NCBI GenBank assembly: GCA_016212505.1
Contig: JACRGB010000003.1
Location: 27,561 to 91,560, forward strand
From: Candidatus Micrarchaeota archaeon
Lineage (GTDB): Archaea; Micrarchaeota; Micrarchaeia; Anstonellales; Bilamarchaeaceae
Length of the DNA: 64,000 bases
Direction: 5' to 3'
Shown here in pieces: positions 25,961-45,101 of the stretch. The position numbers and the translations under genes are program-made. Each line of letters begins with the position of its first letter. Positions within the stretch are counted from its first letter, which is position 1. The notes beneath the pieces are model-generated. The model ran no database searches. It was not told the DNA's origin and was given only the letters and a program-made list of their open reading frames with translations.

Positions 25961-26500
25961 ATGAAAAAAGAAGAACGGGTAGTACGAGTTCAGATCCGAC
26001 CAACTGATTCCGAACAAAAACCAGCACTGGGAAAAAGAAGAGCTCCCATGAACAGCAGTGTAACGATAACGGCAACTGAAGTAATTGAGAGATTGAAAGC
26101 AACTGCAAGTGGCTGGGATCACATCGTAGCTAACATGATCGGACTTATCAGGTTAGAAAAAGAAGAAGTAAAACTTTTCGTAAAGGAAGGAGAAAAAACC
26201 AAAATTTATTCTCTCGATGATGATGATCAGATGTTTGGGATTCTTCAGGCGCTTTCACTGGGAAGCTCATTGCCAAAAAGCCTTCCAAAATTTGCAATTG
26301 CAGTTGTAGAAGAAACAACCAACATATATTTTGTATTGGTATCGATAAATGAGAGGAGAAAAATCATAGTAAAGGCACTACTTTCTAGTTACATGGATCG
26401 AAATGAGAGTGAGTGGAGAGAGGTATTTGTTGCAATAAGGGCAGCTGAGCAGGAGTATCTCATGCCAGGAAATAGGGGCAACCTTGTCATTTCAACTTAA
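25961..26500 (+). CDS. Hypothetical protein convergent with the giant kinase-tailed protein
   Basis: 179-aa ORF with an AGGAAGGA RBS-like sequence; no motif recognised. Confidence 0.65.
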   Translation: MKKEERVVRVQIRPTDSEQKPALGKRRAPMNSSVTITATEVIERLKATASGWDHIVANMIGLIRLEKEEVKLFVKEGEKTKIYSLDDDDQMFGILQALSLGSSLPKSLPKFAIAVVEETTNIYFVLVSINERRKIIVKALLSSYMDRNESEWREVFVAIRAAEQEYLMPGNRGNLVIST

Positions 26501-26515
26501 TAAAAATAGTTAAAA

Positions 26516-29500
26516 CTATCTAGATGCACGCAATGCTTTTTCCGCCATAGCTTGGGCATCAGGGAGAATATCAGCCCAGATATTTTGGAAACCGTCTTTG
26601 CCACCTATAGTAAGCAAGTGACTGAATATATCCGTTGCTTCAGGTGCATCAAACACGACACGACCATGCCGATCAGCCATAACATAATCACGCTGACCAT
26701 TTATCGGCATACCGACCATCACCTGCGGAGGGTCTCCCTTTTGGCCGCCCGCATAGTATGCTTCAATTTCTTTTATCGCAGTTGGGGAAAGTGATTGCCC
26801 AGCTCCAACCATCTGGCCATCATTTTTAGCAAAAGCAGTCACCAGGTTGCGTTCAAAATCAGGGGTACTCCCAACTTCAGTATGCCATTTTTTAGCCCCC
26901 TCTTTTATGGAATGGGTTGCTGATTGGGCCACTTCAGAAACGGGGCGGCCAGACAAACGCGCAAGGCTTATAAAAACTGGAGCTAAATCTTTTGAATATT
27001 GGGGGATTAGGTGTTCTTTGGAGGAATAAAGTTCATATCCCCCTCGTGTATTTTTAGTTACCCGAAAATGGCCTGCGGCATCAGTATCTATCCGCCCGAT
27101 TTTGAATATTGCAGACTCTCCCCTAACATCTACAACAGTATAACCTTCACTCTTAAGTAATGCAACCTTTGAAGGAGGCACTTTCAGCAACATACCCTGA
27201 AGGTTTCCAGAATGATTATCCCAGGAACCTCCCATCATGAGTCCAGTGCATGCATAACCAATTTCCTGATGAACTACCTCGGGATGTTCTTTATAAAATT
27301 TGGTTAATTCGGTATTGCCTTTCATTCTAGATAAACTAGCTGCTTCCATAGTTGAAGTTTGAATTGGTTCACCCCCAAGGTTGAGAGTACCGCTAAAGTA
27401 TTTGATATGGTCTATCAAACCCCATTTAACCGCCCCACCCTCCGGAGAGGAGAACGTAAGCGGTTTACTATTTGATTCGCTAACCACTCCGGCAGTTGGA
27501 ACATTTGCTATTTGCCCGGTTTTTGCCCCGAAAGCAGCAGGCCGTAAATCCTCGGCTTTTGCAATAAATGCTCGCTCTTCACCCGAAGGGGCAACTACTT
27601 TTATCTCGTACGCTCCAACCATACCATCATGGCCGATTATCCGAGTAATTTTACTGCCTTCTGGAACTTTGGCAAGGACAGTTTCAGAAAGATTACCGGA
27701 TAATAAAAGAGATCCGATTGTAGAAACCTGCTGATGATAGTTACCCGACCTAGGATCAAAAGAATGAGAGTAGAGTCCTTTTTTCTCTAAATAAGAGCTT
27801 ACATCAGCCACAGCCGCTTCATTGCTCTTTGCATTAAGATAGACATTTTTTAATTCACCTGAAGATAAGCCAAGTGCTTTCTCAGATGCAGGCACTCCCT
27901 TAAGGTTTTCCAAATAAGTTGCAGCCGAGTGTTCTCCGGCAAGAGTTAGAGTTCTGATGCTTTGTTCTTGTTGGGCAGGAGGAGCTGCTAAAAATGACTC
28001 TGCGGATTTTGTGCGTTCTGTGACGGCTGGGGATCTTAATGATGCTCCTAATTTCTGTGCCTCTGAACGCTCTGCGCCAGTGAGTTCGTGCTGCTGCGCA
28101 CGAGGTTCAGCTGGAGTTTCTAATGCCCGAGGCAATTCTTGCACCGGAACTGCACGTTCTTGAGCCGGAGAATGCCCCGTGGCTTTATTAAGTTCAACAA
28201 CCTTTGGCGCAGTCGTCAAGGAGGTGCGTTTCTTTATTTCACTATCAAGACCATTTGCAGCCTTTTCTAATGCAACTGCCAAAAGAGGATTTGTTTTTTG
28301 ACCGCTTTCTTTAGGGGGATTACGCCAGAACTTTGCTTCATCTCGCAAAGAGCCGGCACGCTCGGATAGCTCCCCAACTTCGATTTTAGGGTTATCAATC
28401 AAACGTTGGGTCTGGAGCTTTGCCGTAGCCTCAAGGGTCACGGAGTCATTCTGCAACTGGGGAATATGCCCTTCATATATGGCCAAACCCGCTTCGTTTA
28501 ATGCGAGATTAAATTCTTGGTTTTGCCTTGGAAGTCTTTCGGTTCCGGAAACGTGTTCCCGATAAGATCTGGCGAGATTGCCTGCAGCACGGGCAGTCCG
28601 TTCTGCTTCTCCCACACCCATGCCCGAATTGATCAAACGATCCTTAAGTTCGGAAAATGCACTTTTCTCTGCGAATTTATGTGCCTCTGCTGCGACCTGT
28701 TCTTGAGGAAGAGGTTTTGCGGATTGGTCAGAGGGATGCGCCAATTCGAATTCCGCAGCTCGCCTAACCGTTTCAAATTTTTCATTAATTGCTCTAGCGT
28801 GAACATCAAGTGCACTTGCAAGTTTTACCTGCTGCTCCCGCACAGGTATTGCTTCTGCGCCTTTTCCTAGGGTATAGACAGTACCTTCTGGAGAAACGGA
28901 ACTATCTGAAAATCGCGACCGAAATCTTGTTTCATTACGAGTAAATTCAAAGTTAGGAGTTTTGAATCCATCAAAAAGTGAGACGGGTTGGCTGCTGGTT
29001 TTTTCCTGAGCCACTAAAACATCCGCACTTTGACGCAATTGCTTTGCGTCAGCAGTAAGTTGTGCAGCCCGATCTTCGAGTACTTGCGCCCCTGCAGAAT
29101 CCCCCTGGCGGTTCAATCTTCGCATTTCTGTTAATGCGTCTGTTGCTTGGGCAGTAATATGATCTGCCTGAGCAAGCAATTGTTGCGAACTTGGAACTTC
29201 TGCTTGATGGGCCATAGGCCGTACTGGAGCTGCTGACCTATTCGTCCGTTCAACTGCCAAACGCCTGGAGATGGCTCTGGAAAAATTAATTCCAAATCGG
29301 CCAACTGCACCAACATCAATACCAGCATTTGCATAAACTGGGGTCCGGTCTACGGCCTCGACAAAAGCAGCCCCAAAAACTCTAGCCCCGAATTTTACTT
29401 TATCAAAACCCTTACTCGCTGCTGATTTAGTTTTGTCTTTAGCAATCCGTGCTGCTTCTCCGGCGGTTTCTGCAGCTACGGCCATTCTTCCAACAACCCG

Positions 29501-32137
29501 CTCAGGCATAGCAACTTGAACATTAGGCCCAGTAGTGACTTTTGGGGCAGATTTTCTAGAGTTAACCGTAATTTCTCCGGAAACAACATCTCCTGCATTA
29601 ACTCCTTGAGGCATCCGGCTAGCCATAGAGTTTGGAATTTTACTTTGAGGCAGTTTCAAGGTTGGAATTTCGAAAGTTGATCCGAAGGCAGCAGTGCGCA
29701 CTTTACTGGAAAAACCTTCAATAACAAATGAGCTGGTCCTCCTATAAGAGGATTTAGCCAGATTAAAAGCACTTTTACGTGAATGCCACAAGGGCAGTGC
29801 ATTATAGAGCAAATCAGCCCCGCCACTTGCCCAGTCACCTTGACGGATCTGACTATACGCGCTACCAACTCCTTCTACAGAAAAACCGAGATTGATACCC
29901 GTTTCTGCCACCCTAAATGCCACGCCGGCATGGCCTAAATTAAACGCATTTGCAGATCCTTTGAGAAGCGGGTTAAATCTAAGCCCAACTACGCTAGTGA
30001 TAAGCATGAGTTGGGTTTTCCACGAAACATCCCCGGTAAAGTATTGCTCCCGAGCAGCGCCCCGGAATGCACTTGCAACACCAAAAAATTGGCCGATAAC
30101 CGGAATAAATGCAACTAGCCTCTCGGCCCATTCATTCAACTTATCTGCAACGTGCATTTTATGTTTTAGTTCATCAAATCGGATTTGAAGCTCTTCCCCG
30201 GCCTGATCAGCAAGTGCCTGAGCACGGTAATTCTGCTTAACTCCGCTATAATATCCTATCAGCTTTTTTGATTGGGCAACAATGGCATCTTGGAGCTTGC
30301 CTTCACCAACTGCAAAAACACGGGAACTTGAGGTGCACACGGAAGCTTCAAAGCGGGCCATAACTTCTGCAAGTTTCTGGTTGTTTTTATCAAAACCCTT
30401 CCCTTCCAGATGTTGATCAAGCAAATGCAACGAAGCATCCATAAAAAATCCAAAATTATTTCTCACAGGATCTATTTTCCCGCTCCTATCAAGAAGGGCA
30501 GCTGCAGAAGCATTGTATTGTTCACCCATCGAACGGGTATCTATCCGAAGCATATTCATTGCAGCGGCCTTAGCCCTAACCGCATCCGTGAATGATCGCC
30601 TGACGGTTTCAGACATTCCTCCAGAAAGATAGGAACTTAGGGCAGCATCATAGGATTTTCTCATAGTGTCAAGACTTTCCATACCGCGAAATTCTTTGGT
30701 TTCTTTCCAGTCGCCCTGACGAACTGCCTCGTAATATCCTGAAGCATTCCTGGTTTCATTCATCAAAAAGATCCCGGTAGAGACAAAAGCAACGGCTTCG
30801 TTTCTGGATTTATAAAATTCTGCAATTTTAGCACTGGCTGCAGATAAATCAGAAAGTTTTCCGCTTTTTTTTGCTTTTTCTATTTCACCCTTAAGTTTTG
30901 CAGATTCTGCCTCTACAGATTCTAATCGTGCAATGAATTTTGGGATTTCATACCGAAATGAGTCTCCAAACTGTGAATGTACGAATTTCTTTAGTTCATC
31001 AGTACTGGCCAATTCGCCCAATTGTTTTTCCTGTGCATTTACATATTCGAGTTGTTTTTTTGTTATGAACTCATTGGTTTTTTTATCAAACTCAGGAAGT
31101 AGTTTGTTTACCTTAGCAACATCTCTTTTTTCTATAGCCAATTTCACTTCATCAAGGGATTTTTGAAGCTCGGGGATTTCGCCGTAACTGGCAGATAGTT
31201 GCATATATGCTTCTCTGCGTTGTTCCAGAACAGATTTCGTCGTAGGAATTTTGCCGTCCTTATCTTTCTTGCCAGGCTGTGGCTGCGTAAGGCTAATACA
31301 ATATTTTGCATCCTCAAATTTTTTCATGCCATGTGCAAATGCAGCTTCTGCATTCTGAATATCGCCCTTAAGGTGTAATGAAACTGCTTCTTTTAGGTCG
31401 TCTAGGCCGTCTGATTTTTTTATGCCCTTAATATTTAGGGCATCTTCGTAACTCATAAGGCGGTCAAGTGCAGCATCTGCTTGGGCAAAGATTTGGTGTG
31501 CTGATTGTGGATTTTTTTCTTCTGGTGCAGAATCATAAAGTTTTTTGATTTGTAATGCAGCACTTTTGATGAAGGGGTCAGATGAGGCCAGAAGTTTTGG
31601 AACAGTGGAACGAAAATCACCGAGTGCTTTTGACTGCTCTACTTCATTAACACGGGAATTCATCTGCCCGATAAGTGCCCCTGCAGCGCCTCTTAGACTA
31701 TCATCAACCTTGTTTTGTTTAAACTGTAAAAGTAAATAATCAGTTTGGGACTTAAACTGCTCAAAAAGATTTACAGAGTGATCAGCTGGATCGATTTTGG
31801 CTTTCCCTAAGTCATTCATACGGGTAAGCAACTCCGCAAGTGCAAGGCAAACCTGCCCATTTGCATAACTAACATCGGTTAGGCCTTCTTTTTGAGCGCG
31901 GACAAAAAAAGCATTAGCCCGTTTGCCGAGTTCACTTACGCGCACATCGTCAGATCTCGCATACCCTCTTGCAGAAGCCCTTAATGCGTCAGGAGCACTG
32001 TTCAGCTTAACATCTTGAATATCTTTAATGGCAGTCTCTTGTGCACGGGCAGCAACTGCACCTAATACGGGGGCAAGTGCACTAACTTGTCTTGTCGGGT
32101 CATTTTCCTGAGGGTTGTAGAAGTGGGGCATAGGCAT
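26516..32137 (-). CDS. 1873-aa toxin/effector-like protein with C-terminal atypical (PI3/4K/HipA-like) kinase domain
   Basis: Helical N-terminus; central Gly/Ala hydrophobic helices; C-terminal GMVGAY..FIAK, GSWDNHSGN, GRIDTD. Confidence 0.6.
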   Translation of the reverse strand: MPMPHFYNPQENDPTRQVSALAPVLGAVAARAQETAIKDIQDVKLNSAPDALRASARGYARSDDVRVSELGKRANAFFVRAQKEGLTDVSYANGQVCLALAELLTRMNDLGKAKIDPADHSVNLFEQFKSQTDYLLLQFKQNKVDDSLRGAAGALIGQMNSRVNEVEQSKALGDFRSTVPKLLASSDPFIKSAALQIKKLYDSAPEEKNPQSAHQIFAQADAALDRLMSYEDALNIKGIKKSDGLDDLKEAVSLHLKGDIQNAEAAFAHGMKKFEDAKYCISLTQPQPGKKDKDGKIPTTKSVLEQRREAYMQLSASYGEIPELQKSLDEVKLAIEKRDVAKVNKLLPEFDKKTNEFITKKQLEYVNAQEKQLGELASTDELKKFVHSQFGDSFRYEIPKFIARLESVEAESAKLKGEIEKAKKSGKLSDLSAASAKIAEFYKSRNEAVAFVSTGIFLMNETRNASGYYEAVRQGDWKETKEFRGMESLDTMRKSYDAALSSYLSGGMSETVRRSFTDAVRAKAAAMNMLRIDTRSMGEQYNASAAALLDRSGKIDPVRNNFGFFMDASLHLLDQHLEGKGFDKNNQKLAEVMARFEASVCTSSSRVFAVGEGKLQDAIVAQSKKLIGYYSGVKQNYRAQALADQAGEELQIRFDELKHKMHVADKLNEWAERLVAFIPVIGQFFGVASAFRGAAREQYFTGDVSWKTQLMLITSVVGLRFNPLLKGSANAFNLGHAGVAFRVAETGINLGFSVEGVGSAYSQIRQGDWASGGADLLYNALPLWHSRKSAFNLAKSSYRRTSSFVIEGFSSKVRTAAFGSTFEIPTLKLPQSKIPNSMASRMPQGVNAGDVVSGEITVNSRKSAPKVTTGPNVQVAMPERVVGRMAVAAETAGEAARIAKDKTKSAASKGFDKVKFGARVFGAAFVEAVDRTPVYANAGIDVGAVGRFGINFSRAISRRLAVERTNRSAAPVRPMAHQAEVPSSQQLLAQADHITAQATDALTEMRRLNRQGDSAGAQVLEDRAAQLTADAKQLRQSADVLVAQEKTSSQPVSLFDGFKTPNFEFTRNETRFRSRFSDSSVSPEGTVYTLGKGAEAIPVREQQVKLASALDVHARAINEKFETVRRAAEFELAHPSDQSAKPLPQEQVAAEAHKFAEKSAFSELKDRLINSGMGVGEAERTARAAGNLARSYREHVSGTERLPRQNQEFNLALNEAGLAIYEGHIPQLQNDSVTLEATAKLQTQRLIDNPKIEVGELSERAGSLRDEAKFWRNPPKESGQKTNPLLAVALEKAANGLDSEIKKRTSLTTAPKVVELNKATGHSPAQERAVPVQELPRALETPAEPRAQQHELTGAERSEAQKLGASLRSPAVTERTKSAESFLAAPPAQQEQSIRTLTLAGEHSAATYLENLKGVPASEKALGLSSGELKNVYLNAKSNEAAVADVSSYLEKKGLYSHSFDPRSGNYHQQVSTIGSLLLSGNLSETVLAKVPEGSKITRIIGHDGMVGAYEIKVVAPSGEERAFIAKAEDLRPAAFGAKTGQIANVPTAGVVSESNSKPLTFSSPEGGAVKWGLIDHIKYFSGTLNLGGEPIQTSTMEAASLSRMKGNTELTKFYKEHPEVVHQEIGYACTGLMMGGSWDNHSGNLQGMLLKVPPSKVALLKSEGYTVVDVRGESAIFKIGRIDTDAAGHFRVTKNTRGGYELYSSKEHLIPQYSKDLAPVFISLARLSGRPVSEVAQSATHSIKEGAKKWHTEVGSTPDFERNLVTAFAKNDGQMVGAGQSLSPTAIKEIEAYYAGGQKGDPPQVMVGMPINGQRDYVMADRHGRVVFDAPEATDIFSHLLTIGGKDGFQNIWADILPDAQAMAEKALRASR

Positions 32138-32495: not shown

Positions 32496-33596
32496 CTAGA
32501 TCAGTTTCACCAGTCCCCTTCCTATTTCCGGGATGTTTCCCCCAAATAAGTTCGCTGCGTTAAGGGTGAATGTCATAAATACCACCATTGCGATTAATGG
32601 GAAGAGGCAAATTGCTGAAAGCAGATGGAGGGCAAGATCCGAAAGATGGTAGGTCACCAATTCAGTAAGCTGGCCATAGTTTGCTCTTAATCGGACTACG
32701 GATTCGCTTAAGCTGCCGACGCTGGGGCTCTGGCAGGCATAAGTTGAAAGATCATCTGGAACAGATGGAAGCATGCAGTCGTATTTGAACGAGCTTTCAA
32801 GGGGCGCGGGATTTGGGTTTGCAACAAGCAGAGAGGTCTGCACATGGGGAAGCGACATAGTTGCCACTAGGATATAAGTAAGGGGAAATACGAAATATAT
32901 GCCTACTGAAATTGCCATCATAAATGCGCCGGCACCGCGCACTGGGGGAAAGGCACGGAGTGCAACCCCAACAGAAAAGAAGAAACCAGCATAATATTTG
33001 ATGAAGGTGAAGGTATGGACAATAAGATAATACATGTACATGTAAAATGACATTGATTTTGTTGCGGTTGCAATTCTTTCTGAAAGCCATTTTATACCAA
33101 ATCCCGAGGCCACTTCGGACATGAAAATTTCCATATAAACAGATGAAATGGCCTCCACAGGGATGCTGAGGCCATAAAGGACTTTCATAAAACCGCTAAC
33201 GCATCTTGCCGGGGTTTCCATATAAAGGATCATCCAGTCGATGAGCGTGTTTTGGCTAAATACCACGCCATTCCAGGGAAAATCGTTCGAGTTGAGCTGG
33301 AAGGTAGAAAGATAAAGTGACTTTGCAACAGAACTGTGGAGTCCTGGCAGGGGCGCTCCTTGGGCAAGCAGGGGTTCGCCAACCTGGGCAAGCGCGGCCA
33401 CCATAATCACAATAAGCACGGTGGATACTGCATAAACAAATTCCGTTTTCGCTGTCTGCTCGAGGTTACGTAGGGAAAAGAGCCGGGAAAACATAATCAG
33501 CATGGCAGCAACTACTACTGATAGTGATGCTGCGGCAACCGCAAGCAATTCCCAGCCTGCATAGAAAGACGAACAGAAAAAAGTTGTACAAACCAT
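32496..33596 (-). CDS. CedA/VirB6-like polytopic membrane protein, paralog 6
   Basis: GVALRAFPPVRGAGAFMMAI..YFVFP; C-terminal FGGNIPEIGRGLVKLI. Confidence 0.65.
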   Translation of the reverse strand: MVCTTFFCSSFYAGWELLAVAAASLSVVVAAMLIMFSRLFSLRNLEQTAKTEFVYAVSTVLIVIMVAALAQVGEPLLAQGAPLPGLHSSVAKSLYLSTFQLNSNDFPWNGVVFSQNTLIDWMILYMETPARCVSGFMKVLYGLSIPVEAISSVYMEIFMSEVASGFGIKWLSERIATATKSMSFYMYMYYLIVHTFTFIKYYAGFFFSVGVALRAFPPVRGAGAFMMAISVGIYFVFPLTYILVATMSLPHVQTSLLVANPNPAPLESSFKYDCMLPSVPDDLSTYACQSPSVGSLSESVVRLRANYGQLTELVTYHLSDLALHLLSAICLFPLIAMVVFMTFTLNAANLFGGNIPEIGRGLVKLI

Positions 33597-34847
33597 CTAG
33601 ATCATCCTCGTTAATGAACTTATATCTACTTCTTCGCCGAAAATTGCGCTGAACCTCCTTGCAGCTTCAATAAACACAAGGACATTTAGGGCAGGGGCAA
33701 GAAACGCGAATAAAAATGCAAGTGCTACCACGGAAATTGGGATCATTATAATTATTGTAAATGTATCCCCAACAATGGACTGGAGGATGGAGCCAACTCC
33801 GCCATAAGTACCGCTTACAATGTCAGTAATGCCTCCATTGCCAAAACCTTTGGAGAAAAAATCGCTTGCATGCTTCATGAAACCGCCCGGGGTCAGGTCG
33901 CTAAAGAAATTGCGGAGGAAATCTGTCCAGTTAACTAAAGGATTCCCAAGACCGCTTAACATGACACTAAAGGTAAGGACGGTAAGGAGGGGAAATACAA
34001 GGAGGAATGCTGCGGAAATCCCAATCAGGGTCCCTCCAACCCTCCGGGTCGGGGTAAAGCAGCGGAGGAAAATACCTGCTGGCAGATAATAGTGAAGGAA
34101 TGCCTGTAATGAAAATAGGTAAACAAATAGCTGCGCATACATTATGATATATGCAACAGATAATGCAACCGACATATTATACAGCAGTTGTTTTATAGGG
34201 GAGAAAAATCCTGCAAAGGGAGTTGCTACAAGCCCAACGCCAAGAGGCCGGGCATAGGGAGTAACCGAAGCGAACTGGTCTACAATCACATTTAGCAGGT
34301 AGCTCATATCCAGCCAACTGCCGACATAGTATCCACCAAGTTCAAAAAATGCCCCTGCGACCTTATATACTGAATCTCCGGCCACAACACCAGTAAAACC
34401 AGAACCTAGTGGAGTTGCTTTTGGGAAAAAGTCTTCTGGAAGGGAGGATCCCATATCAATATTTGCAAGGACAGCAATTGAGCCCAAAATGATAACTGCA
34501 AGAAAACCGGAAATGACAAGTTCGAGAAGTTCCTGCTTTACGAAATTTATGACCATCTGGTTCCTTAGCAGGGTACCAAAAATATAAAATAATGCAAGAA
34601 GCACTGCTGAAACCATTAAAGCTAAACCCGATGGGGCAACCCAGTCCCACATGCCGGCAAACTGGGTGGAAACTATTGAATCAGCATCAAGCTTGAACAT
34701 TCCTGCAGTTCCCTGCGGGGGGGAGGGGTTTTGGAAAGGCGGGGCCTGCACACAGCCCGAGCTGATAAGAAATAGGAAAATGGCGGCGAGGAGGATGAAT
34801 ATTTTGGTTTTTTTGTTGCCGATCATACGCATAGTAAATCTCCCCAT
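33597..34847 (-). CDS. CedA/VirB6-like polytopic membrane protein, paralog 5
   Basis: PAGIFLRCFTPTRRVGGTLIGI..LVFP; C-terminal FGEEVDISSLTRMI. Confidence 0.65.
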   Translation of the reverse strand: MGRFTMRMIGNKKTKIFILLAAIFLFLISSGCVQAPPFQNPSPPQGTAGMFKLDADSIVSTQFAGMWDWVAPSGLALMVSAVLLALFYIFGTLLRNQMVINFVKQELLELVISGFLAVIILGSIAVLANIDMGSSLPEDFFPKATPLGSGFTGVVAGDSVYKVAGAFFELGGYYVGSWLDMSYLLNVIVDQFASVTPYARPLGVGLVATPFAGFFSPIKQLLYNMSVALSVAYIIMYAQLFVYLFSLQAFLHYYLPAGIFLRCFTPTRRVGGTLIGISAAFLLVFPLLTVLTFSVMLSGLGNPLVNWTDFLRNFFSDLTPGGFMKHASDFFSKGFGNGGITDIVSGTYGGVGSILQSIVGDTFTIIIMIPISVVALAFLFAFLAPALNVLVFIEAARRFSAIFGEEVDISSLTRMI

Positions 34848-36110
34848 TCATATAAGTTTTAAGAACCCAAAGAAATTAACATTAACTCCGAAGAACTTTG
34901 CAGTTTCCTTTGCTGCAGTAAGGGTAACGAAAATATTAAAGAACGGCAGCAGTACGGCCATCATGACGATATAGTATACGGACCCCCGCACAAGCTCAAA
35001 GGCCAGTGAAACTATCCCTCCCATGAAGAATGGCACCAGCACGCCGCTCGTAAGCAGCATTGAAATAACCGCAGTCCCAAAGACATTGAAGATCCCGCTG
35101 TTGGTAATGAAGCTGTTTATTGCTTTTTGGGCATCGATGATATTTCCACGCATTAGCTTGTGGACCTCATAGTCAATCAGGAACATGAACGGGTAAACGA
35201 GCGCGAGCGAAAATGCAATTGCGATCAAGGCTTCGCCTGCATTCCGCGTAAAAGGTATTGCACGAAGAAGGATGCCTAGCGGAATGAATAAGCTCCATGT
35301 CCACTTTTTGATTATGCATAGGGTGACAAGGTGGAGCAGCCATTCGCTAATGCCAAGGGAAAGGAACTGCAACGACGTACCGATAACATCAATAAGGGGC
35401 TTGAGTATGGGACCCATGTTAAACGAATACATTGCACGCCAGGTAACGCCAAACCACATTGTAGATGAATAGATCGTATGGACTACGGTGTTGTAAAGAA
35501 GGAGCATGCTGTAGTCGGTTGACATTTCGGTTATCATAACCCGGGTGAACTGTAGCGCGGCATCCATCATATTTGAATTGAAACGTGGATTGCCATAAAT
35601 AGGGTCGGCACTTGCATTCCCTGCACTAAATGAAAACCATAGCCCGCCCATGCCAATTGCCACAAGGATGACCATCACCCTGCGGATGGTGATTGTGGTC
35701 TGGTAAAGCTCATCTTTTGCAAGTGCGATTAATGAGGGCGAACTGAGAAGCTGGCCGAGCATATAAAATGCAGCGATTCCAAAAAAAACTACAAAAAGTG
35801 CAAGAATTGTAGGTGCAATCCAAAGTACATTTACAGTATCAGGAGAAATTGCAGGATTCGGGTTGGGGTTTTGGACTGAGAGGAAAGGATCATCGCAAGA
35901 GCTTCCCTTAAGGGTGTCAAAGAGGCTGTTGATGCCTACTGCGGCAGCTCCGGCGGGTGCCACTGCAGTATTTTTTATGTCATCCCAGCCCTTGTTCATA
36001 TTGTCGACGAATTTTTGGAATGCAGTGCTCCCAGCATTTTGGTCTGGCGGGTCGGCAAATAGGATGGAGGTGGAGAAGATCAGGATCAGGAATATGGGTA
36101 GCACCTTCAT
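34848..36110 (-). CDS. CedA/VirB6-like polytopic membrane protein, paralog 4
   Basis: PLGILLRAIPFTRNAGEALIAI..LVYP; C-terminal FFGVNVNFFGFLKLI. Confidence 0.65.
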   Translation of the reverse strand: MKVLPIFLILIFSTSILFADPPDQNAGSTAFQKFVDNMNKGWDDIKNTAVAPAGAAAVGINSLFDTLKGSSCDDPFLSVQNPNPNPAISPDTVNVLWIAPTILALFVVFFGIAAFYMLGQLLSSPSLIALAKDELYQTTITIRRVMVILVAIGMGGLWFSFSAGNASADPIYGNPRFNSNMMDAALQFTRVMITEMSTDYSMLLLYNTVVHTIYSSTMWFGVTWRAMYSFNMGPILKPLIDVIGTSLQFLSLGISEWLLHLVTLCIIKKWTWSLFIPLGILLRAIPFTRNAGEALIAIAFSLALVYPFMFLIDYEVHKLMRGNIIDAQKAINSFITNSGIFNVFGTAVISMLLTSGVLVPFFMGGIVSLAFELVRGSVYYIVMMAVLLPFFNIFVTLTAAKETAKFFGVNVNFFGFLKLI

Positions 36111-36111
36111 A

Positions 36112-37611
36112 TCAAATCAGCCTCGTAAGTCCTGCTATTTCTATATCCCCGCCAAAGGTCATGGAAAGCGAACGTATTGCGGCAATAGTGGAAATTATTG
36201 CAAGCAATGAAAAGAACATTGACCAGAAACTAAGCCTTGCAAGGATATCGAGCGGGCCATTTGGTTCCCAGGAAAAATTAATCCAGCTATCTTGCTTGCT
36301 CGCTTGGGAGAGTTGGCCGAACCAGCTATCCCGGTCGGTAGGATCGAACGCTTTTTCTGCCGCGGCAAGCGCTTTCTGCTGTTCTGCAACTACTGCCGGA
36401 TCCTTGCTGGCAGGATCATCACCTGGGCCTGCATTGAATCTGGGAATTAACTTATTGGTGGCTGGATCATTTTTTTCGATAGTTTCAAGATAGGCCAAAT
36501 CATAGGGATTGACCCCTTCCTTGGCAACACCCGAATACCCTTGTATATTTGCAAGAGTCTGCTGAGCACCCCGGGTGTCGAGCTTATTGCCCCCTCCTAT
36601 TACAGGTACAAAACCCAGTATATACATGGTGTTTGCAATTGGAGGGTCGGGATTGAGTTTGCCAAGAGGATTGGCTTTTACATTTAGGGGAGAAACCCAA
36701 TCATCACGGACATTATCCTTGAGCTGGATCATTACCAGCCCGGCAAAAGCATAGAAGGTCGGATAGATGAAATAGAGGGCAATTGCAATTGCAAGCATAA
36801 GGCCACCAAGGCGCCGGGTAAATGTGAATGTACGCAGAAGGGTCCCGGCAACAAAGAACGAAGGGAATATGGCAAGTGCGATAAAGCGCAGGAAAATTTC
36901 CTGCATCTTAGTGATCATAAGGATTTTCATGGCCCATTCAAATGCCAGAGATTTGACATTATTGCCCATTGTGAAGAATCCCCTCCAGGGGTTGAATGTG
37001 ATGAACCCGGTTTTTTCAAAAATAGTTTCAAAGTTTATAGTAAATTCTGCGGCCATAGAAGTCCAGATATAGTCGATATAGGTATTGAATGCAAAAGTAC
37101 TAGTTTCATCAAACACTTCCCGCAGGTGCCAGATGCCCATACGTACAGAACAGGAGGAAATGCCATTGTAAACAGAATATTGGTTTTCAGCAATATCGTC
37201 CCCGCATATGTCTATACACGCATAGTCACGTATGCCATTGTTTACCAGCGGGATCTGACCTGCACGAAATTGTTGGACGTAAGTTGTAGTTGCAGTAGTT
37301 GCGCCAGGGCAGAGGGTCCCAGGAGAAGGTTGGGGATTATTTCCGATACCCTGGTGCGGCATCAGGAGAATAGCCCCATGCACAACACCATCAACAAGCG
37401 GAAGGCTGGTTATTGCAAAAGAAAGGATTATCGCTGAATAAAATAATTCTGCTAGTTCCATTTTGGCCCATGCCTTTATTTTATCGTTCATGAGCATGCT
37501 GCCGATCATATACACTCCGCCAATTAGGCAAGTAACTATTCCGAATGCAATTCCGGCAAAAGCGAGCCAGTCGCCCCAGAACAATTTTATAGTTGTAAAT
37601 ACATCGACCAT
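36112..37611 (-). CDS. CedA/VirB6-like polytopic membrane protein, paralog 3
   Basis: AGTLLRTFTFTRRLGGLMLAI..YFIYP; C-terminal FGGDIEIAGLTRLI. Confidence 0.65.
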   Translation of the reverse strand: MVDVFTTIKLFWGDWLAFAGIAFGIVTCLIGGVYMIGSMLMNDKIKAWAKMELAELFYSAIILSFAITSLPLVDGVVHGAILLMPHQGIGNNPQPSPGTLCPGATTATTTYVQQFRAGQIPLVNNGIRDYACIDICGDDIAENQYSVYNGISSCSVRMGIWHLREVFDETSTFAFNTYIDYIWTSMAAEFTINFETIFEKTGFITFNPWRGFFTMGNNVKSLAFEWAMKILMITKMQEIFLRFIALAIFPSFFVAGTLLRTFTFTRRLGGLMLAIAIALYFIYPTFYAFAGLVMIQLKDNVRDDWVSPLNVKANPLGKLNPDPPIANTMYILGFVPVIGGGNKLDTRGAQQTLANIQGYSGVAKEGVNPYDLAYLETIEKNDPATNKLIPRFNAGPGDDPASKDPAVVAEQQKALAAAEKAFDPTDRDSWFGQLSQASKQDSWINFSWEPNGPLDILARLSFWSMFFSLLAIISTIAAIRSLSMTFGGDIEIAGLTRLI

Positions 37612-37652
37612 ATTGCATCCTCAGAGGTTTACTCATAAATTCTTCAAAATAC

Positions 37653-39416
37653 CTACATTTTCATCAGTATAAATTTCGTCATCGCATTTATGAATGCTAT
37701 AGTGACCATAATTGAGAGTGCGGGCATAAATAATGATAGAAGGGTAAGTACCGCAAAGTGCCGCATGATTATTGTAAATTCCGGCATGGGCAGGAGCCCC
37801 AGTACCCCTTCTGAGAAAAAATTACCCAGTGACTTTTGCACCGCAGTCCCTTTGGGAAGGTATTCGAATATTTTCCCCGGTGCAGTAGCGGGATTAAAGA
37901 AATAGCCAAATGCACCGTATTTTACCGGCCCGCATATTGAGTAAATTAAGGTGTTGGGGCTTTGGTATCCCGAAGGCCCAAGGTCCTCATACGCTTTCTT
38001 ATCGATCAGATAACCCATCGGAAAAACAATTTGGAAGCCTAATGCAAATGCCATAAGGAATGCACCTGCATCGCGGGTGGGCGGGAAAAAGTGCAGGATA
38101 AGCCCCGCAGGGAGGAAAAAATTACCCATAGTAGAATCTATGAAATAGAGAAGGCTGATTTGCGCAGATAAGCTGCCATAAACAGCTACGAGCCCATAGG
38201 AAAGGACATTGGAAATAGAAACAAAAGTATCGATTCCAGGAAAAACCTTATAGGTACGGGTAAGCACGGATTCTCCGATCCTTCTTGCATAAACGCTGAG
38301 CATGGAAGTGCAGGACTGTATCGAGTAAACATCATATATGCCGTTTAGTACTGGATCAAGTGCCTTCTCTTGCAGGAAATTTATTGCGGCAAGGGAAGGC
38401 GAGTTGGTATGGTAAGCATCATTTGCCCAAGCTGAAACGATCTGGCTGCCTACAACGAAAAGTCCTGCCACAAAGAGGACAAGAAGGAATGAGCGGAAAA
38501 GGTTGGAAAGTTCGACATTGAGGTAGCCCTCCCATTCAGGAACCCGGAAAACTTTTGAAACTATATAAGTCAGGAAAATTATCAGGGAAACAAAAAAGAA
38601 TACGTTGATCATCAGGTCAGCGTAGGGAGAAATGGATGCGGCAGTGCCTATTTTTGTCTGAAGTATCGAATCAAATGCGCCACCTTTAGCTAAAAAGACC
38701 TTGAATACGACGAAATAGACTATTGCTACAATAAAAGTACTTGCAAGGAGATTATTCGCAAATCCGGTTGCCCTGGCCCGGGTTTCTGCGCCAAACATCA
38801 TCCCGGCAGCATAGAAAACCGCTGCAAGAATAGCAAAGACGATTGTCAGGAATGCAAGTGAATTTTCGGATATGGTTTTTAGGTCGCTGAAGATTTTTAA
38901 GAAATCGACGGATGATGGCTCGCCACCGGCATTAAGGCTGGGCTGGATGATCGAGAGGAGGAAGAACATTATGATTATTACTAACGCCGAAACACCAACC
39001 GCAGTAAGCATGCTTTCAGTCCAGGTAGATGCTTTTGCTCTTAAGTCTGCACCAAACATCTGGCCAATAACATAAACTGAAGCCGCTATTACGATCATGG
39101 TGATTAGGAGAATCCCCATGACAGAAAGGGCAAAGGGAAGTAGGGAATTAGGGGAACTGTTAAGGGCGGATAAGGGATCAATTGGTGGATTGGCGGCAAA
39201 TGAAAATGAGGGCAGGAGTAGCGATAGAAATAGCACAAGCAGGAAGAGCGAGAAAGGAGTTTTTATGTTTTTTATTATATTGGAATTTGCAAATTCCAAT
39301 GCGTGGAGAAATTCTTTGGAATTTCTCCTGTAGCGAACCGTGTTCGCTACGGACAAATTTTTGCGAAAATTTGTCCTTGTAGTCTTCGTGAAGTCCATTA
39401 ATAGCACCCTTTTCAT
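37653..39416 (-). CDS. CedA/VirB6-like protein, paralog 2, with two N-terminal VirB2/TrbC pilin-like repeats
   Basis: Repeats AASVYVIGQMFGADLRAKA and AAVFYAAGMMFGAETRARA; core PAGLILHFFPPTRDAGAFLMA. Confidence 0.6.
   Translation of the reverse strand: MKRVLLMDFTKTTRTNFRKNLSVANTVRYRRNSKEFLHALEFANSNIIKNIKTPFSLFLLVLFLSLLLPSFSFAANPPIDPLSALNSSPNSLLPFALSVMGILLITMIVIAASVYVIGQMFGADLRAKASTWTESMLTAVGVSALVIIIMFFLLSIIQPSLNAGGEPSSVDFLKIFSDLKTISENSLAFLTIVFAILAAVFYAAGMMFGAETRARATGFANNLLASTFIVAIVYFVVFKVFLAKGGAFDSILQTKIGTAASISPYADLMINVFFFVSLIIFLTYIVSKVFRVPEWEGYLNVELSNLFRSFLLVLFVAGLFVVGSQIVSAWANDAYHTNSPSLAAINFLQEKALDPVLNGIYDVYSIQSCTSMLSVYARRIGESVLTRTYKVFPGIDTFVSISNVLSYGLVAVYGSLSAQISLLYFIDSTMGNFFLPAGLILHFFPPTRDAGAFLMAFALGFQIVFPMGYLIDKKAYEDLGPSGYQSPNTLIYSICGPVKYGAFGYFFNPATAPGKIFEYLPKGTAVQKSLGNFFSEGVLGLLPMPEFTIIMRHFAVLTLLSLFMPALSIMVTIAFINAMTKFILMKM
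39279..39376. repeat. Mini-palindrome array IV (4 units), in-frame in the 5' end of the 587-aa gene
   Basis: ATTGGAATTT-GC-AAATTCCAAT; GGAGAAATTC-TTTG-GAATTTCTCC; GTAGCGAAC-CGT-GTTCGCTAC; GGACAAATTT-TTGCGA-AAATTTGTCC. Confidence 0.85.
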
Positions 39417-40690
39417 ACCACTTTTGTTAAACCGACCAATTCAGCTTCACCGCCAATTAGCATAGAAATGCTGCGGTACATTGTCACGGTGATTATTATT
39501 TCCAGGACAGTGGTGAGTATCACAAGCACAATAAATGGTGAAATGGTCCCAACTTCGTTCAATATGAAGTAATAGAGCCCGGCTGAAGAACTCGTAGGAA
39601 GGAAAGTTGATTTGGACCCAAAGAGGCTGGGGTAAAAATCGCCGGTTGTGCCTACCATAAAGAGCCAGATATTTCTTACAGTTGCAGCCAAAGATCCTCC
39701 TGTATTCCAGGCTGCACGAGCCATATTTTTGAGACTGCAAAGCAGACCAGTAACCCCATCACATCCGAGAGTTGGGGTTTTTGTTGCATCTGCAAGCTTG
39801 TCTGCTTCTTGAAATTCCTTGGTGATCGCATCGGTCCTACTCCCCTCCCTCCATTCAGTTATGAGTTTGGTCCAATAACCCTCATCATGATGAGTTGCAA
39901 GGTAAGATGGAGTTTGCGGGGTGTAAACAAAATCCGCTGGTTTGTACATGGAAAAAATCAGATAATGTGAAAAAATTGTGGCAAAGGGAAGGACAAAATA
40001 CATTGCAAAACAAATTGCGAGGATGCTTGAACCTGTGGTCCGGTAAAAGGGAAATGCACGGAGGATGAGGCCAAAGGGAAGGATAATTAATGGGATTGCG
40101 TCTTTAGTGAAAATGAGTATAAATTCCTTGGCCATTAAAACAGTAACAAGATAACTGATAGTCTCTACGATTATGGTGTGGGCATCACTAAGAAGGGTTA
40201 GTCCGGTAAATGGTGCAAATGAAAATGAGATAATGGCTACTGAGGGTATGGGCGAGCTGACCGGGAAACTGACTGTGGAAAGGAAACCTATCAGGGCTTC
40301 AAAAAGATAAAGGTCAATATACTGGGAGAAAAGCTTTTCTTTTAGGATAGTTAACACGCCAAGGGCAAGGTTGATATGTGCAGAGGTATAAACCTGATTT
40401 GGGTTTGCATTATTTATTACCCCACCAAGCCCTGAAGTACTTGATTGCAGCGCACCCTGGACCAGGGCATTTAAGGTGGTATCGAGGCTAAGCCAAAAGA
40501 AAATGATTACTGCAGAAAAAATTAAAGCAGCCAGTTCTTCCTTTGCAATAGCAGTAATTGAAGGGCTTTGTAAAAAATAAGCCACAAGAAATATTGAGCC
40601 GGTTAACCCCGTGGCAAAACCAAGGGAAACAAATATCATAGACCAGGCTGCTGGCGGTAAAGTTATTGCCAATAGCAGGGGAAGTAGCAT
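39413..40690 (-). CDS. CedA/VirB6-like polytopic membrane protein, paralog 1
   Basis: PFGLILRAFPFYRTTGSSILAI..YFVLP; C-terminal IGGEAELVGLTKVV. Confidence 0.65.
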   Translation of the reverse strand: MLLPLLLAITLPPAAWSMIFVSLGFATGLTGSIFLVAYFLQSPSITAIAKEELAALIFSAVIIFFWLSLDTTLNALVQGALQSSTSGLGGVINNANPNQVYTSAHINLALGVLTILKEKLFSQYIDLYLFEALIGFLSTVSFPVSSPIPSVAIISFSFAPFTGLTLLSDAHTIIVETISYLVTVLMAKEFILIFTKDAIPLIILPFGLILRAFPFYRTTGSSILAICFAMYFVLPFATIFSHYLIFSMYKPADFVYTPQTPSYLATHHDEGYWTKLITEWREGSRTDAITKEFQEADKLADATKTPTLGCDGVTGLLCSLKNMARAAWNTGGSLAATVRNIWLFMVGTTGDFYPSLFGSKSTFLPTSSSAGLYYFILNEVGTISPFIVLVILTTVLEIIITVTMYRSISMLIGGEAELVGLTKVV

Positions 40691-40741: not shown

Positions 40742-42034
40742 ATGCACAGAACACATTACGTTACAGAAGCTAAAAAGGCTGTTGGGTCGATTGTTAGGAT
40801 TGCAGGATGGGTACATGATGTCCGTGACTTGGGGAAAATGCGGTTTGTCATAGTAAGGGACATTACCGGCCTGATGCAGGTTACTATAAAGAAAGGGTTG
40901 GTGCCTGATGATCTGCTCGAGCGGACCAAAGTTAATAAGGAGGATGTTGTCAGTTTTTTTGGCTTGCTAAAGGAAAATAAGATTGCTCCGGATGGAGTCG
41001 AACTTATACCTGAAGAATTCGAGCATCTGAATAAGGTTGAAGTTAAGCTGCCGGTCGATCCGACAGGAGTGGTTCCTGCTGAAATCGATACGAGACTTGA
41101 CAATCGATGCATTGATTTACGGAGAAAAGAAACTACCCTTATCTTTAGGGTCAAATCAGTTGCAGCAAATGCATTCAAAGAAAAGCTCCTGGAGAAAAAA
41201 TTTATTGAAATCCATACTTCCGCGATAACAGGTACTGCAACCGAAGGCGGATCGGATGTTTTTGAAGTTCAGTATTTTGAAAATAAGGCATATCTTGTGC
41301 AATCGCCACAGCTCTATAAGCAGCTCGCGGTGATTGGGGGGCTGGACCGGGTGATGATGAGCGTTCCAGTTTTTCGGGCTGAAAAACACAACACTACAAC
41401 TCATTTGAATGAAGTAACGCAGATGGATATCGAGATGGGTTTTGCTGACCATAATGATGCGATGGAAATTTTAGAAGAAGTTGTTTTGCACATGCTTAGC
41501 GTAGTAAAGAGAGAATTGGGCGAAGAAATTGAAAAAACATTTGGCGAACTTGTTGTGCCAACAAAAGTCCCAAGATACAGCTATACAGAATTAGTCAAGA
41601 AGCTTAACGAAAATAATTTTGAAATGAAACACGGATGGGACTTTACCAAAGAAGCAGAGAAAAAACTTCATGAACTTCTTGGCGATGAACTTTACTTTAT
41701 CTATGACTGGCCGACTTCGGTTCGCGCATTTTATTCAATGCCGGATTCAAAAAATCCGGAAATCTGCCATGCATTTGATTTGATGTATAGGGGACTTGAA
41801 ATATCTAGTGGTGCAATGCGCATCCATATTCCAGCATTAATTGAAGAGCAATTAAAGAAGCGCGGTTTGGACCCAAATAATTTTGAATTCTACATTAACG
41901 CGTTTCGAGTGGGTGCACCGCCACATGCTGGCTGGTCGATAGGTTTAGAGCGATTAGTCATGAAAATGTGCAAGCAGGAGAATATCAGAGAATGCATGCT
42001 TTTCCCAAGGGATAGGAATAGGCTGATGCCGTAA
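40742..42034 (+). CDS. aspS: Aspartyl-tRNA synthetase, archaeal, probably non-discriminating
   Basis: GWVHDVRDLG (His), KIAPDG (Pro), YLVQSPQLYKQ, FRAE, PPHAGWSIGLER. Confidence 0.95.
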   Translation: MHRTHYVTEAKKAVGSIVRIAGWVHDVRDLGKMRFVIVRDITGLMQVTIKKGLVPDDLLERTKVNKEDVVSFFGLLKENKIAPDGVELIPEEFEHLNKVEVKLPVDPTGVVPAEIDTRLDNRCIDLRRKETTLIFRVKSVAANAFKEKLLEKKFIEIHTSAITGTATEGGSDVFEVQYFENKAYLVQSPQLYKQLAVIGGLDRVMMSVPVFRAEKHNTTTHLNEVTQMDIEMGFADHNDAMEILEEVVLHMLSVVKRELGEEIEKTFGELVVPTKVPRYSYTELVKKLNENNFEMKHGWDFTKEAEKKLHELLGDELYFIYDWPTSVRAFYSMPDSKNPEICHAFDLMYRGLEISSGAMRIHIPALIEEQLKKRGLDPNNFEFYINAFRVGAPPHAGWSIGLERLVMKMCKQENIRECMLFPRDRNRLMP

Positions 42035-42106: not shown

Positions 42107-42502
42107 TCAATAGTTTTCCGCAGTAATTCCAGGAATCCTTGAAAAATGCTTTACATTTTCAGTTATTATAACGTTTTCTCCATTGGTTAATGCAATTGCG
42201 GCAATTAGAGCATCAGTTTCATTCACATCTTGGCCTTTTTGTTTAAGTTCTGCAGAGATACGCGCAGCACCATCGGTGCTTGTGGCATCTAATTCAAGTA
42301 TGGTTATTGAATCAAGAAAAGCATAAAAAATTTTAAGTTCTTTCTCTTTTACATCGGATTTTTGAAAATATATTCCAACTAGCACTTCAAAAACATTTAT
42401 TCTCGTAGTAAAAACATCTGAAGAAAGTGTTTTTACCTTACGTAGTGCGCTTTGCTTATTTTTTAAAAAATGAATAATGAAGGTCGTATCAAGAACTACC
42501 AT
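42107..42502 (-). CDS. vapC: VapC PIN toxin
   Basis: VLDTTFII, DALIAAIAL, TENVKHFSRIPG. Confidence 0.93.
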   Translation of the reverse strand: MVVLDTTFIIHFLKNKQSALRKVKTLSSDVFTTRINVFEVLVGIYFQKSDVKEKELKIFYAFLDSITILELDATSTDGAARISAELKQKGQDVNETDALIAAIALTNGENVIITENVKHFSRIPGITAENY

Positions 42503-42732
42503 TTTAGAGGCACCTTTCTCCAGTTTTTCCTTACTTTCTTTACTACGGTTTCCATTTCTTTTGTCTCTTTTTCAGACATAAAGCTCCATGAGCCTGCAAA
42601 GTCCATAAAGTTTTTTTTACTCTTTTGCGGATGTATGAACTTGTGGATCACCTTACTATAACTTTCGCCAGGCCTTTTAAGGGTGGTAAGTTCCTTGTAA
42701 ACTGCATCAGAAATCATTATTGCATGGGCCAT
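42496..42732 (-). CDS. vapB: VapB-like antitoxin
   Basis: IMISDAVYKELTTLKRPGESYSKVI, DFAGSW. GGTGA RBS before ATG 42732; palindrome TATATATAC-ATA-GTATATATA at 42742-42762 is a likely operator. Confidence 0.85.
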   Translation of the reverse strand: MAHAIMISDAVYKELTTLKRPGESYSKVIHKFIHPQKSKKNFMDFAGSWSFMSEKETKEMETVVKKVRKNWRKVPLKW

Positions 42733-42847
42733 CAAGTCACCTATATATACATAGTATATATACATTTAAAATAGTTTCGAAAACAGGAGAACTACTAAAT
42801 TTAGGAGAGATAGAAGTAGATTAATGCTATAAATTAATGAAGCAAAA

Positions 42848-43880: not shown

Positions 43881-45101
43881 CTATCGTTTCTTCTTGCCCA
43901 TGAACATGAATGCCGCACCGCCCACAATAACCACAAGGACGATCAATCCGATTATGATGGGAATAAGAAGATCGGTTTTTGGAGCGGGTTTAGCAACAGG
44001 AGCAGATGGAGCGGATTTTGCCAGCTGGCCTGCAACTGAAGAAACAGATTTGGCAAGGCTCAACGCGGTGGCGTAGTCTCCCTTATTGAATGCAATAACA
44101 GCATCATTTAGTTTTGATTGTAATGAAGAAGTATCCTGGCCTGCTGCTTTTGCTTTTGCAATGTCGCTCCTTGCCTGTGAAATGGCCACTTGGGCGCTTG
44201 ACTGTGCTTCCAGATTAGGGGACGGGTCTTCGGGGGGAGAAAGCGGAACAGGTGTGGGATTAACTGAAGGGGATGAATTGTTTTGCGGAGTAGGTTGGGG
44301 GGTTGGAGCAGGTGTTGGAGTAGGTGTTGGTGATGGAGTCGGGGCAGGTGTTGTTGGTGAAGTTGAGGTATTTGTAGAAGTAGAAGAACTGCTTGATGAA
44401 CTGCCAGAAGAACCAGAAGATGGAGGAGTTATACTCAAAGTAAGTGCAGCAGCACTTATTGTGTTACCGTTAACATCAAAGCTTACTGAACCAGAAGTGG
44501 TTGGAGTTATGGTCCATGAGAGTGAAGAGGAACTTCCACCTGGAATAGAAACTGAACCAGATGTCGAACCACCTGAAATACTAGCTCCGGAAGCACTTAA
44601 AGAATAACTGGCAGTTGCCGTGCTACCACCAGTATTGGTTATAGTAACAGAGTAAGTAACCGACTGGGTTGAAGTTAATGTAGATGATGAAGGGGAGTTT
44701 TTAGAAACTGAGAACTGATCTCCAGCCACAAACTCAATTGCCTGCTGGGTACCAGTTGCAGGGGTGCCAGATGATGGAGTAACTTGAGCATTAAAATTAT
44801 AAGTTCCTGCAGATGAAGCAGTGATAGTAAAAGTTTTAGAATCGCCAGTCTGAACTCCGGAATATTGATACGAAGAAGATGCAGAGGGATCAGTTACGCT
44901 GAGTCCGGAAGTAAGATCATAAAGTTGGAGGGTTGCGCCACTACAATCAGAGTCTCCGCCAACGATTACAGTTACAGATACGGAATTACCAACAGTAGCG
45001 CTTGCAGCAGCAGATATTGAAGAAATGCTGCAAGTTGAAAAAGCCGCTAGAGATAGCAATAACAAACCAAAAAGAAAAACTTTAGTAGACATCATAATCA
45101 C
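43881..45101 (-). CDS. Ser/Thr/Pro-rich cell-surface protein with Ig-like domains and C-terminal TM anchor
   Basis: Signal peptide, beta-rich repeats, PT linker, C-terminal TM + KKKR. Confidence 0.8.
   Translation of the reverse strand: MIMMSTKVFLFGLLLLSLAAFSTCSISSISAAASATVGNSVSVTVIVGGDSDCSGATLQLYDLTSGLSVTDPSASSSYQYSGVQTGDSKTFTITASSAGTYNFNAQVTPSSGTPATGTQQAIEFVAGDQFSVSKNSPSSSTLTSTQSVTYSVTITNTGGSTATASYSLSASGASISGGSTSGSVSIPGGSSSSLSWTITPTTSGSVSFDVNGNTISAAALTLSITPPSSGSSGSSSSSSSTSTNTSTSPTTPAPTPSPTPTPTPAPTPQPTPQNNSSPSVNPTPVPLSPPEDPSPNLEAQSSAQVAISQARSDIAKAKAAGQDTSSLQSKLNDAVIAFNKGDYATALSLAKSVSSVAGQLAKSAPSAPVAKPAPKTDLLIPIIIGLIVLVVIVGGAAFMFMGKKKR

Follow-up and report, generated by a model that had tools for sequence, protein, structure and literature searches.

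What could an archaeon with a small genome do with six consecutive genes for divergent membrane proteins? This question is raised by a 64,000-nucleotide stretch of the Candidatus (Ca.) Micrarchaeota archaeon assembly GCA_016212505.1 (contig JACRGB010000003.1, positions 27,561 to 91,560), hereafter the window, in which such genes occupy positions 32496 to 40690. How DPANN archaea take host material is an open question, and a symbiont-side structure seen by cryo-tomography is described as having no assigned genes (PMC11329633). An earlier note on the window proposed that the six encoded proteins resemble CedA, a channel for DNA import in archaea, and VirB6 from type IV secretion systems (T4SS). 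Here, we report that they very probably encode the CedA/VirB6-like platform of a domesticated T4SS, in a Micrarchaeon likely dependent on a host, and we weigh what this machine might do. The array in the window is called array A and a second array in the same genome array B; C numbers denote contigs of the source genome (G000), and L and G numbers denote loci and genomes of relatives.

Six membrane paralogs homologous to CedA

As previously described, the array consists of six co-oriented, mostly abutting open reading frames (ORFs) on the minus strand—g1 (39413-40690, 425 amino acids [aa]), g2 (37653-39416, 587 aa as called), g3 (36112-37611, 499 aa), g4 (34848-36110, 420 aa), g5 (33597-34847, 416 aa), and g6 (32496-33596, 366 aa)—with gaps from g1 to g6 of -4, 41, 1, 0, and 0 nt, and a GC content equal to that of the window. 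That they are divergent paralogs is borne out, since 13 of the 15 pairs reach E<1e-3 in one direction or both, with weaker values for g1-g2 (0.008) and g2-g3 (0.014), at a core identity of 14-23%. Pfam and NCBIfam scans gave no match for any of the six proteins. The motifs that the earlier note saw in all six are real, R..R..G and the following P being near-invariant across 85 family members, but looser than written. LRxFP is exact in g1 and g6 only, and the N-terminal AKxE(L/F) is exact in g1, g3, g4, and g6, reading VKQEL in g5 and LNVEL in g2. Similarly, the double-glycine (GG) tail ascribed to five genes is exact in g1, g3, and g6, but degenerate in g4 and g5; it is absent from g2 and from gene 2 of array B.

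Across 156 family sequences, there are five hydrophobic segments with alternating lysine/arginine (K/R)-rich loops and K/R-poor regions. K/R content is 13% after the first transmembrane segment (TM1), 20% after TM3, and 11% in the tail, versus 4.6% in the stalk and 5.5% in the insert, and we therefore predict that the loops and tail are cytoplasmic while the stalk and insert are outside. Each subunit is thus predicted to have five membrane helices, arranged as a pilin-like hairpin (TM1-TM2), an outer helical stalk, a cytoplasmic-side LRxFxxTRxxG hairpin, a variable insert on the outside, and a short tail in the cytoplasm. The outer inserts are variable, up to 724 aa long, and enriched in cysteine (3.7%). 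The longest variable one is found at position 3, which ranges over 363-1380 aa across 25 orthologs. The AlphaFold model of g6 is a long-helix bundle with a predicted local distance difference test score (pLDDT) of 80. Judging from their sequences, the six genes encode genuine five-helix membrane paralogs.

The link to CedA comes from profile-profile comparison with 34 crenarchaeal proteins of the CedA family, drawn from the 30 best loci found in searching 121 genomes and from the five first ones. The array family scored 96.5% against this set (E 8.8e-10, 181 columns) and a larger family alignment 97% (E 1e-10, 218 columns), with controls at 0.17% when reversed, at most 0.25% for five column-shuffled alignments, and at most 0.4% for an unrelated 6-TM family. 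The homology spans the N-terminal hairpin and the LxxxPxRxGxxxGxxLI hairpin, and each position profile taken separately scored between 50 and 96% (92, 50, 81, 96, 88, and 96% for positions 1 to 6). The NCBIfam CedA family was matched by 5/85 family members, with a best E of 3.5e-4 that is below the curated cut-off. By these comparisons, the six proteins are homologous to CedA, which upholds the central claim of the earlier note.

Its second claim, likeness to VirB6, is backed by one structural alignment but not by profile comparison. The g6 model aligned with stalk chain F of R388, which we take from its length to be TrwI/VirB6, over 243 of 272 residues (Z 9.1, root-mean-square deviation 5.3), the longest alignment among the 50 matches listed; this likeness is suggestive only. 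Comparison of the family with 30 bacterial TrbL/VirB6 profiles scored at most 2%, but CedA itself scored only up to 1%, so this comparison misses the known CedA-VirB6 link. None of the six proteins matched PF04610 (VirB6/TrbL) in Pfam, TrbL was not found in the five first genomes, and a sequence search of the PDB with an 85-row profile gave 0 matches. With g6, Foldseek returned nothing at E<=1e-3, TTYH leading and VirB6 being absent among the matches shown, and a wide VIA structure search returned short coiled-coil matches only, with VirB6 absent from the top 50. Prediction of a trimmed g4+g6+g5 complex gave no answer (score 0.00), one position-5 row (L187) having sat in the position-6 alignment. 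The family also weakly matches (52-72%) a 317-aa VirB6-like protein in modules of this genome that resemble integrative and conjugative elements (ICE).

A fixed array of six across Micrarchaeota

The source genome (1.48 Mb) contains a second six-gene array, array B (C31:18149-26249), and a singleton paralog (C43:38361-39479), which, together with the pilin fusion in g2 and the split VirB4 discussed below, go beyond the earlier note. A 13-row profile matches 178 of the 201 genomes of the phylum and 3,201 cluster representatives, match counts in this search not being copy numbers. The nearest relatives of g6 in a protein atlas are mostly Microcaldota, presumably the newer name of Micrarchaeota. 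When 24 arrays from 18 relatives (top hits and near-complete genomes) are set beside the two of the source genome, six members are found in 26/26 arrays from 19 genomes—directly in 21, on re-inspection in five. In a tree of 156 sequences, the proteins form clades by position (supports 0.97, 0.81, 0.95, 0.81, 0.96, and 0.99 for positions 1 to 6, and 1.0 for the singleton), within which arrays A and B are sister sets; the block was therefore duplicated whole. A held-out test, in which each array type was left out in turn, assigned 129/150 members to their own position (A 41/41, B 52/63, U 11/11, V 14/24, and X 11/11), one of the misses being a mislabeled member. The fixed number and order of the genes, their duplication en bloc, and their abutting or overlapping ends fit stoichiometric co-translation of the subunits.

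The product of g2 departs from the other five in carrying two N-terminal pilin-like units, encoded on the minus strand at 38934-39284 (residues 45-161, signal-like helix included) and 38700-38963 (residues 152-239), each matching the pilin profile with an E of 6e-11. Both units are found in five other array-A gene-2 proteins, and two free pilin genes stand ahead of the array in L139 and L198, which suggests fusion or duplication. The first ~50 codons of g2 have no counterpart in 5/6 other proteins first labeled array-A gene 2. Repeat analysis shows in this 5' extension, at 39279-39376 (no strand), a mini-repeat of four perfect hairpins, in frame, that is not part of the machine; three of the hairpin arms recur at many sites in the genome, and all four recur in order at C3:43144-43240. 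It seems that a mini-repeat of ~100 nt was inserted ahead of or within the signal peptide of g2, the true start of which is uncertain.

Pilins, a probable split VirB4, and an ATPase accompany the arrays

The earlier note found no VirB4-like ATPase in the window, and we agree. None is present among the 19 ORFs scanned of the 85 of at least 100 aa (plus some smaller ones), and genome-wide DUF87/TraG searches placed none there. The wider search of the genome that it proposed did find such ATPases, together with pilins. Two chromosomal ATPases (C4:41634 and C46:21592) have CedB as best NCBIfam family (E 9e-21 and 1e-29, under the cut-off) and intact Walker A and B motifs, one of the two belonging to the singleton operon, and a pilin-like gene is cut by the ends of C9 and C32. 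The genome thus has both CedA similarity and VirB4-like ATPases, the joint absence of which had been named as grounds for abandoning the idea. Among named organisms, the main ATPase has its closest relatives in Ca. Bilamarchaeum/Bilamarchaeaceae (Micrarchaeota), and an ortholog in the cultured Ca. Mancarchaeum acidiphilum (P0311) is 74% identical to the query.

In relatives, these genes stand beside the array, in line with the T4SS-like machine that the note had envisaged. The array adjoins genes for what appears to be the N-terminal part of VirB4 in five other genomes, and the ATPase gene too in four of the five. In L139-L142 and L198, the array is followed by genes for one or two two-helix proteins of ~275 aa, then for the ATPase, a protein of ~100 aa, a two-helix protein, a coiled-coil protein, and, where the locus extends far enough, an ~800-aa anchored protein. 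In L143, the array is followed by a pair of 275-aa proteins, and in L143 and L144 the ATPase block is elsewhere. Pilin genes lie upstream of the array in L139, L140, L142, L143, and L198. The singleton operon (L145-L148) comprises pilin, paralog, anchored protein, and ATPase, and L195 is similar without a pilin call. One neighbor of the relatives' loci is, we assume, a topoisomerase gene. The 275-aa protein models as a separated N-terminal part of VirB4, that is, a split VirB4. The top 11 Foldseek matches listed for it are all R388 entries containing VirB4 (prob 1.0 and an E of 1.3e-3 at best), and 155 of its residues align with VirB4 in VIA (Z 8.1); profile comparison of the 275-aa family with the ICE N-terminal region gives 1.9%. 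Of seven members of the pilin family tested, six match TrbC/VirB2 (best E 4e-6) or T4SS_pilin, four of the seven at E<1e-3, and the protein after the ATPase is coiled-coil/winged-helix-like by weak hits. These loci therefore bring together a linked pilin, a VirB4-type ATPase with an N-terminal domain, and a polytopic channel protein, which make up a minimal T4SS core.

The same genes co-occur across the phylum. Among 64 hand-picked genomes of the 201, in which kin are not independent, the ATPase is present in 41/41 family-positive and 0/23 family-negative genomes, and the pilin (by a profile that included a g2 fragment) in 40/41 and 0/23, respectively. Two genomes of a family otherwise without the system (G146 C11 and G148 C14) each have one paralog match, one pilin, and one singleton-type ATPase, which hints that the small singleton operon spread separately. 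An intein-sized insertion is likely present in two versions of the main ATPase, that of G006 (L198:1485-4628), which has 1,047 aa and Walker B moved to residue ~832, and that of G116 (1,067 aa). Array B is followed in the source genome by a gene for a 1,416-aa cysteine-rich, lipoprotein-like protein without family match (C31:13898-18148; L001:6899-11149). It is conserved in relatives, a cysteine-rich protein of 1,150-1,510 aa following array B in 10/10 of their B loci.

Comparison with known systems

The closest known systems are Ced of Sulfolobales (CedA, CedE, CedA1, CedA2, CedB, and CedD) and Ted of Thermoproteales, which are chromosomal and relaxase-less like the array system. CedA is homologous to the array channel proteins and shares with them a pilin-like N-terminal hairpin (PMC9905601), and the array-linked ATPase is closest to CedB. 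However, the array system has six paralogs, each specific to its position and duplicated in this order, and a singleton system besides; its pilin is TrbC/VirB2-like with a signal-like leader and no match to CedA1; the N-terminal part of VirB4 would be a separate anchored protein; and there are extra conserved genes, while no conserved CedD was found with a single-protein query. The array system is thus like a minimal T4SS in its workings and homologous to Ced, yet it matches neither the CedA equivalog nor CedA1. With the R388 VirB/D4 T4SS (TrwI/VirB6, TrwK/VirB4, and VirB2), it shares a fold-level match of the 275-aa protein to VirB4, a TrbC-like pilin, and, suggestively, a fold-level match of g6 to the stalk chain, but VirB6 of R388 is a homopentamer and the array system appears to have a split VirB4. 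VirB5, VirB7-VirB11, and VirD4 were not recognized in the conserved operon of relatives. In Rickettsiales, the rvh genes virB6a-e of a host-dependent lineage are reported as tandem paralogs, ~80% diverged and variable in their flanks, that neighbor virB3/virB4 (PMC2653234); the array genes differ in being six rather than five, archaeal, and CedA-type, and convergence is the default reading. Patescibacteria (CPR), which are reduced epibionts, are described as having a phylum-wide, chromosomal, and mostly relaxase-less T4SS in which virB6 is essential for growth in one strain (PMC12102498; see also bioRxiv 10.64898/2026.06.21.733656). Unlike the array system, that T4SS belongs to the MPF-FATA type of bacteria and usually includes several pilins as well as a coupling protein, and the portion of the account covered here describes no six-paralog VirB6 array (PMC12102498).

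In the proteome of a Microcaldus ARM-1 co-culture, proteins of 56.5, 12.6, 15.1, 28.3, and 90.9 kDa form a run ahead of topoisomerase VI B. In size and order, but without sequences, this run fits the ATPase block (PMC11329633 supplementary table). The "HerA" ATPase of this run, matched on the same basis, has an intensity-based absolute quantification (iBAQ) value of 2.3e9, two ribosomal proteins having values of 3.0-4.9e9. None of the six paralogs was identified in the part of the table covered, and BCS90583-90589 was rejected as a candidate array on account of an S-layer gene inside it and misfitting sizes. The ARM-1 envelope contains a 21-nm barrel described as having no assigned genes, and a connecting tube that is host-derived (PMC11329633); that the barrel could be this machine is speculation.

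A proposed machine and its alternatives

We propose that the six position-specific CedA relatives, one copy each, would assemble as the membrane base of a chromosomal T4SS-derived machine. This base would recruit VirB2-like pilins into a growing pilus, a split VirB4-like ATPase would drive the machine, the variable outer inserts would face the partner cell, and nucleic acid would be imported from the contacting cell, most likely the host. We read the six subunits as a non-interchangeable, asymmetric pilus base and channel because VirB6 of R388 is reported as a pentameric base that recruits VirB2 for pilus growth driven by VirB4 (PMC9259494), because CedA and CedB import DNA (PMC9905601, PMC11823120), and because CedA/CedE have been proposed to form a hetero-oligomer (PMC11868833). 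A role as pilus base, by analogy with VirB6, is likely, and we regard a ring with one of each subunit as reasonably probable. That the machine imports nucleic acid is slightly favored, while the host may or may not be the donor, with the balance even. The chain as a whole—nucleic acid imported on contact through a six-subunit base, the host being the most likely source—has in our view an equal chance of being right or wrong. A bolder version, in which Micrarchaeota turned the conjugation machine into a pilin-fused gate of six different subunits that taps the host for nucleic acid, is itself the symbiont-side contact apparatus, such as the ARM-1 barrel, and is an archaeal counterpart of the feeding T4SS of Patescibacteria, is doubtful.

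Several observations weigh against this proposal. Assembly, stoichiometry, cargo, direction, and partner are all parts of it that we infer. Six subunit types do not map onto the homopentameric symmetry reported for R388 VirB6 (PMC9259494). The CedA equivalog NF041796 (cut-off 330 bits) has no match among the six proteins or anywhere in the source genome, all family-library matches (CedA, CedB, and pilin families) fall under curated cut-offs, and the pilin family does not match the CedA1 profile (0.3%). The match of g6 to the R388 stalk chain has a Z level with those of unrelated helical bundles (9.2 for IncA, 9.0 for a designed repeat) and falls short of the ~13 recommended where folds are helical. 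In four arrays from two families, the tree does not resolve positions 1 and 3, and just 14/24 members found their own position in the held-out test. In the source genome, six contigs share the parts between them, with two arrays per one main ATPase, and the family-negative genomes fall in eight families, so that they amount to few independent events. Finally, a CedD/VirD4-like coupling ATPase is reported as essential for Ced import (PMC11823120), and no conserved one was found. The one VirD4/CedD-like candidate (C21:29095-31455, 786 aa), found in 11/50 genomes with a single-protein query, was rejected as a core part for being patchy; it is followed, on the other strand, by five related ORFs of 255-529 aa.

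The same pilus machine might instead export proteins into the host, or mainly anchor the cell to it, like the remodeled Rickettsiales T4SS with its five VirB6 paralogs (PMC2653234). The lack of a conserved CedD/VirD4 would fit this, as would the large cysteine-enriched outer inserts, the cysteine-rich protein after array B, and a 1,873-aa ORF, kinase-like in its C-terminal lead, that lies immediately downstream in the window. Nevertheless, the closest homologs of the channel (CedA) and of the motor (CedB) are DNA-import proteins, protein-exporting T4SS are said usually to need a coupling ATPase too (PMC12102498), and no homolog of the 1,873-aa ORF accompanies any of the relatives' 24 arrays; we hold export or anchoring to be an unlikely alternative. 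Those homologies to Ced, together with the coiled-coil/winged-helix-like protein after the ATPase, would also suit an exchange of DNA among Micrarchaeota cells for repair or recombination with no part for the host, which is the function reported for Ced (PMC9905601, PMC11823120). But Ced has one or two channel paralogs rather than six, and it is described as damage-induced (PMC11868833), whereas the ARM-1 cluster, matched by size and order only, is abundant in co-culture; we consider exchange among kin improbable.

Even within a pilus machine, the paralogs could be alternative or sequential parts, either separate homo-oligomers or a ring of five with an accessory such as position 2. VirB6 is pentameric (PMC9259494), position 2 is tailless and includes pilin units, and the singleton operons (L145-L148 and L195), in which a single paralog is combined with a pilin and a separate ATPase, indicate that one subunit type can apparently suffice. 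Against such arrangements stand the number and order of genes fixed in all 26 arrays and the abutting or overlapping genes duplicated en bloc into arrays A and B, and we think them rather unlikely. The idea that the array is a remnant of a mobile conjugative element is already largely refuted and deserves very little credence. The genome does hold three ICE-like modules with pilins, a PrgI-VirB4, and the 317-aa protein that the family weakly matches. The array, however, is intact, present in most genomes of the phylum beside housekeeping genes, and indistinguishable from the window in GC content; its position clades are older than families; and the operon genes scanned gave no relaxase or integrase match, no genome-wide relaxase search having been made.

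The proposed machine of six subunits would provide a concrete, phylum-wide gene set for the question of how DPANN archaea take up host material and would extend Ced/Ted-like domesticated T4SS beyond Thermoproteota. Its channel would apparently consist of six different subunits, whereas the solved VirB6 is a homopentamer. The ATPase ortholog in the cultured Ca. Mancarchaeum acidiphilum makes the idea experimentally approachable. A conjugation-like machine of Micrarchaeota is apparently undescribed. A literature search that had subscription journals outside its scope found no publication on a Ced/T4SS-like system in this phylum; the archaeal CedA/CedE/VirB6 tree in Fig. S1 of PMC11868833, likewise outside it, may include Micrarchaeota. 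In the portion covered here, the Mia14 genome paper names type IV pili, Sec, and Tat only as secretion (PMC5498576).

Neighboring genes

Divergent from array A is an aspartyl-tRNA synthetase gene (40742-42034, plus strand), identified by ORF scan and by the same neighbor in relatives. It is a conserved landmark rather than a component, which adjoins array A in five relatives (L184, L186, L188, L193, and L203) and lies near the whole operon in L139 and L198. Beyond it are a VapBC-type toxin-antitoxin pair (42107-42765) and two large surface proteins with immunoglobulin-like leads (43881-49624). The 1,873-aa ORF downstream of the array (26516-32137, minus strand) has no family match; a 3,619-aa protein encoded at C24:25933-36792 matches it over the C-terminal ~500 aa (E 5e-153), a region that gives a LepB_N-like kinase as lead (atlas 0.92, few shared features). 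The ORF possibly encodes a secreted polymorphic protein, and was rejected as a core part on its absence beside the relatives' arrays. The three ICE-like modules, related to each other, are at C38:20476-26159, C14:12241-18181, and C6:28138-32918 of G000, beside DNA methyltransferases, and contain two TrbC-like pilins, a 380-aa protein, the 317-aa VirB6-like protein, and PrgI-VirB4; near two of the three are what we take to be integrase-like genes. Elsewhere in the window (24166-26108), a Pab1020-type RNA ligase gene faces a PIN_5 "RNA ligase partner" gene, presumably a HARP-type RNase P.

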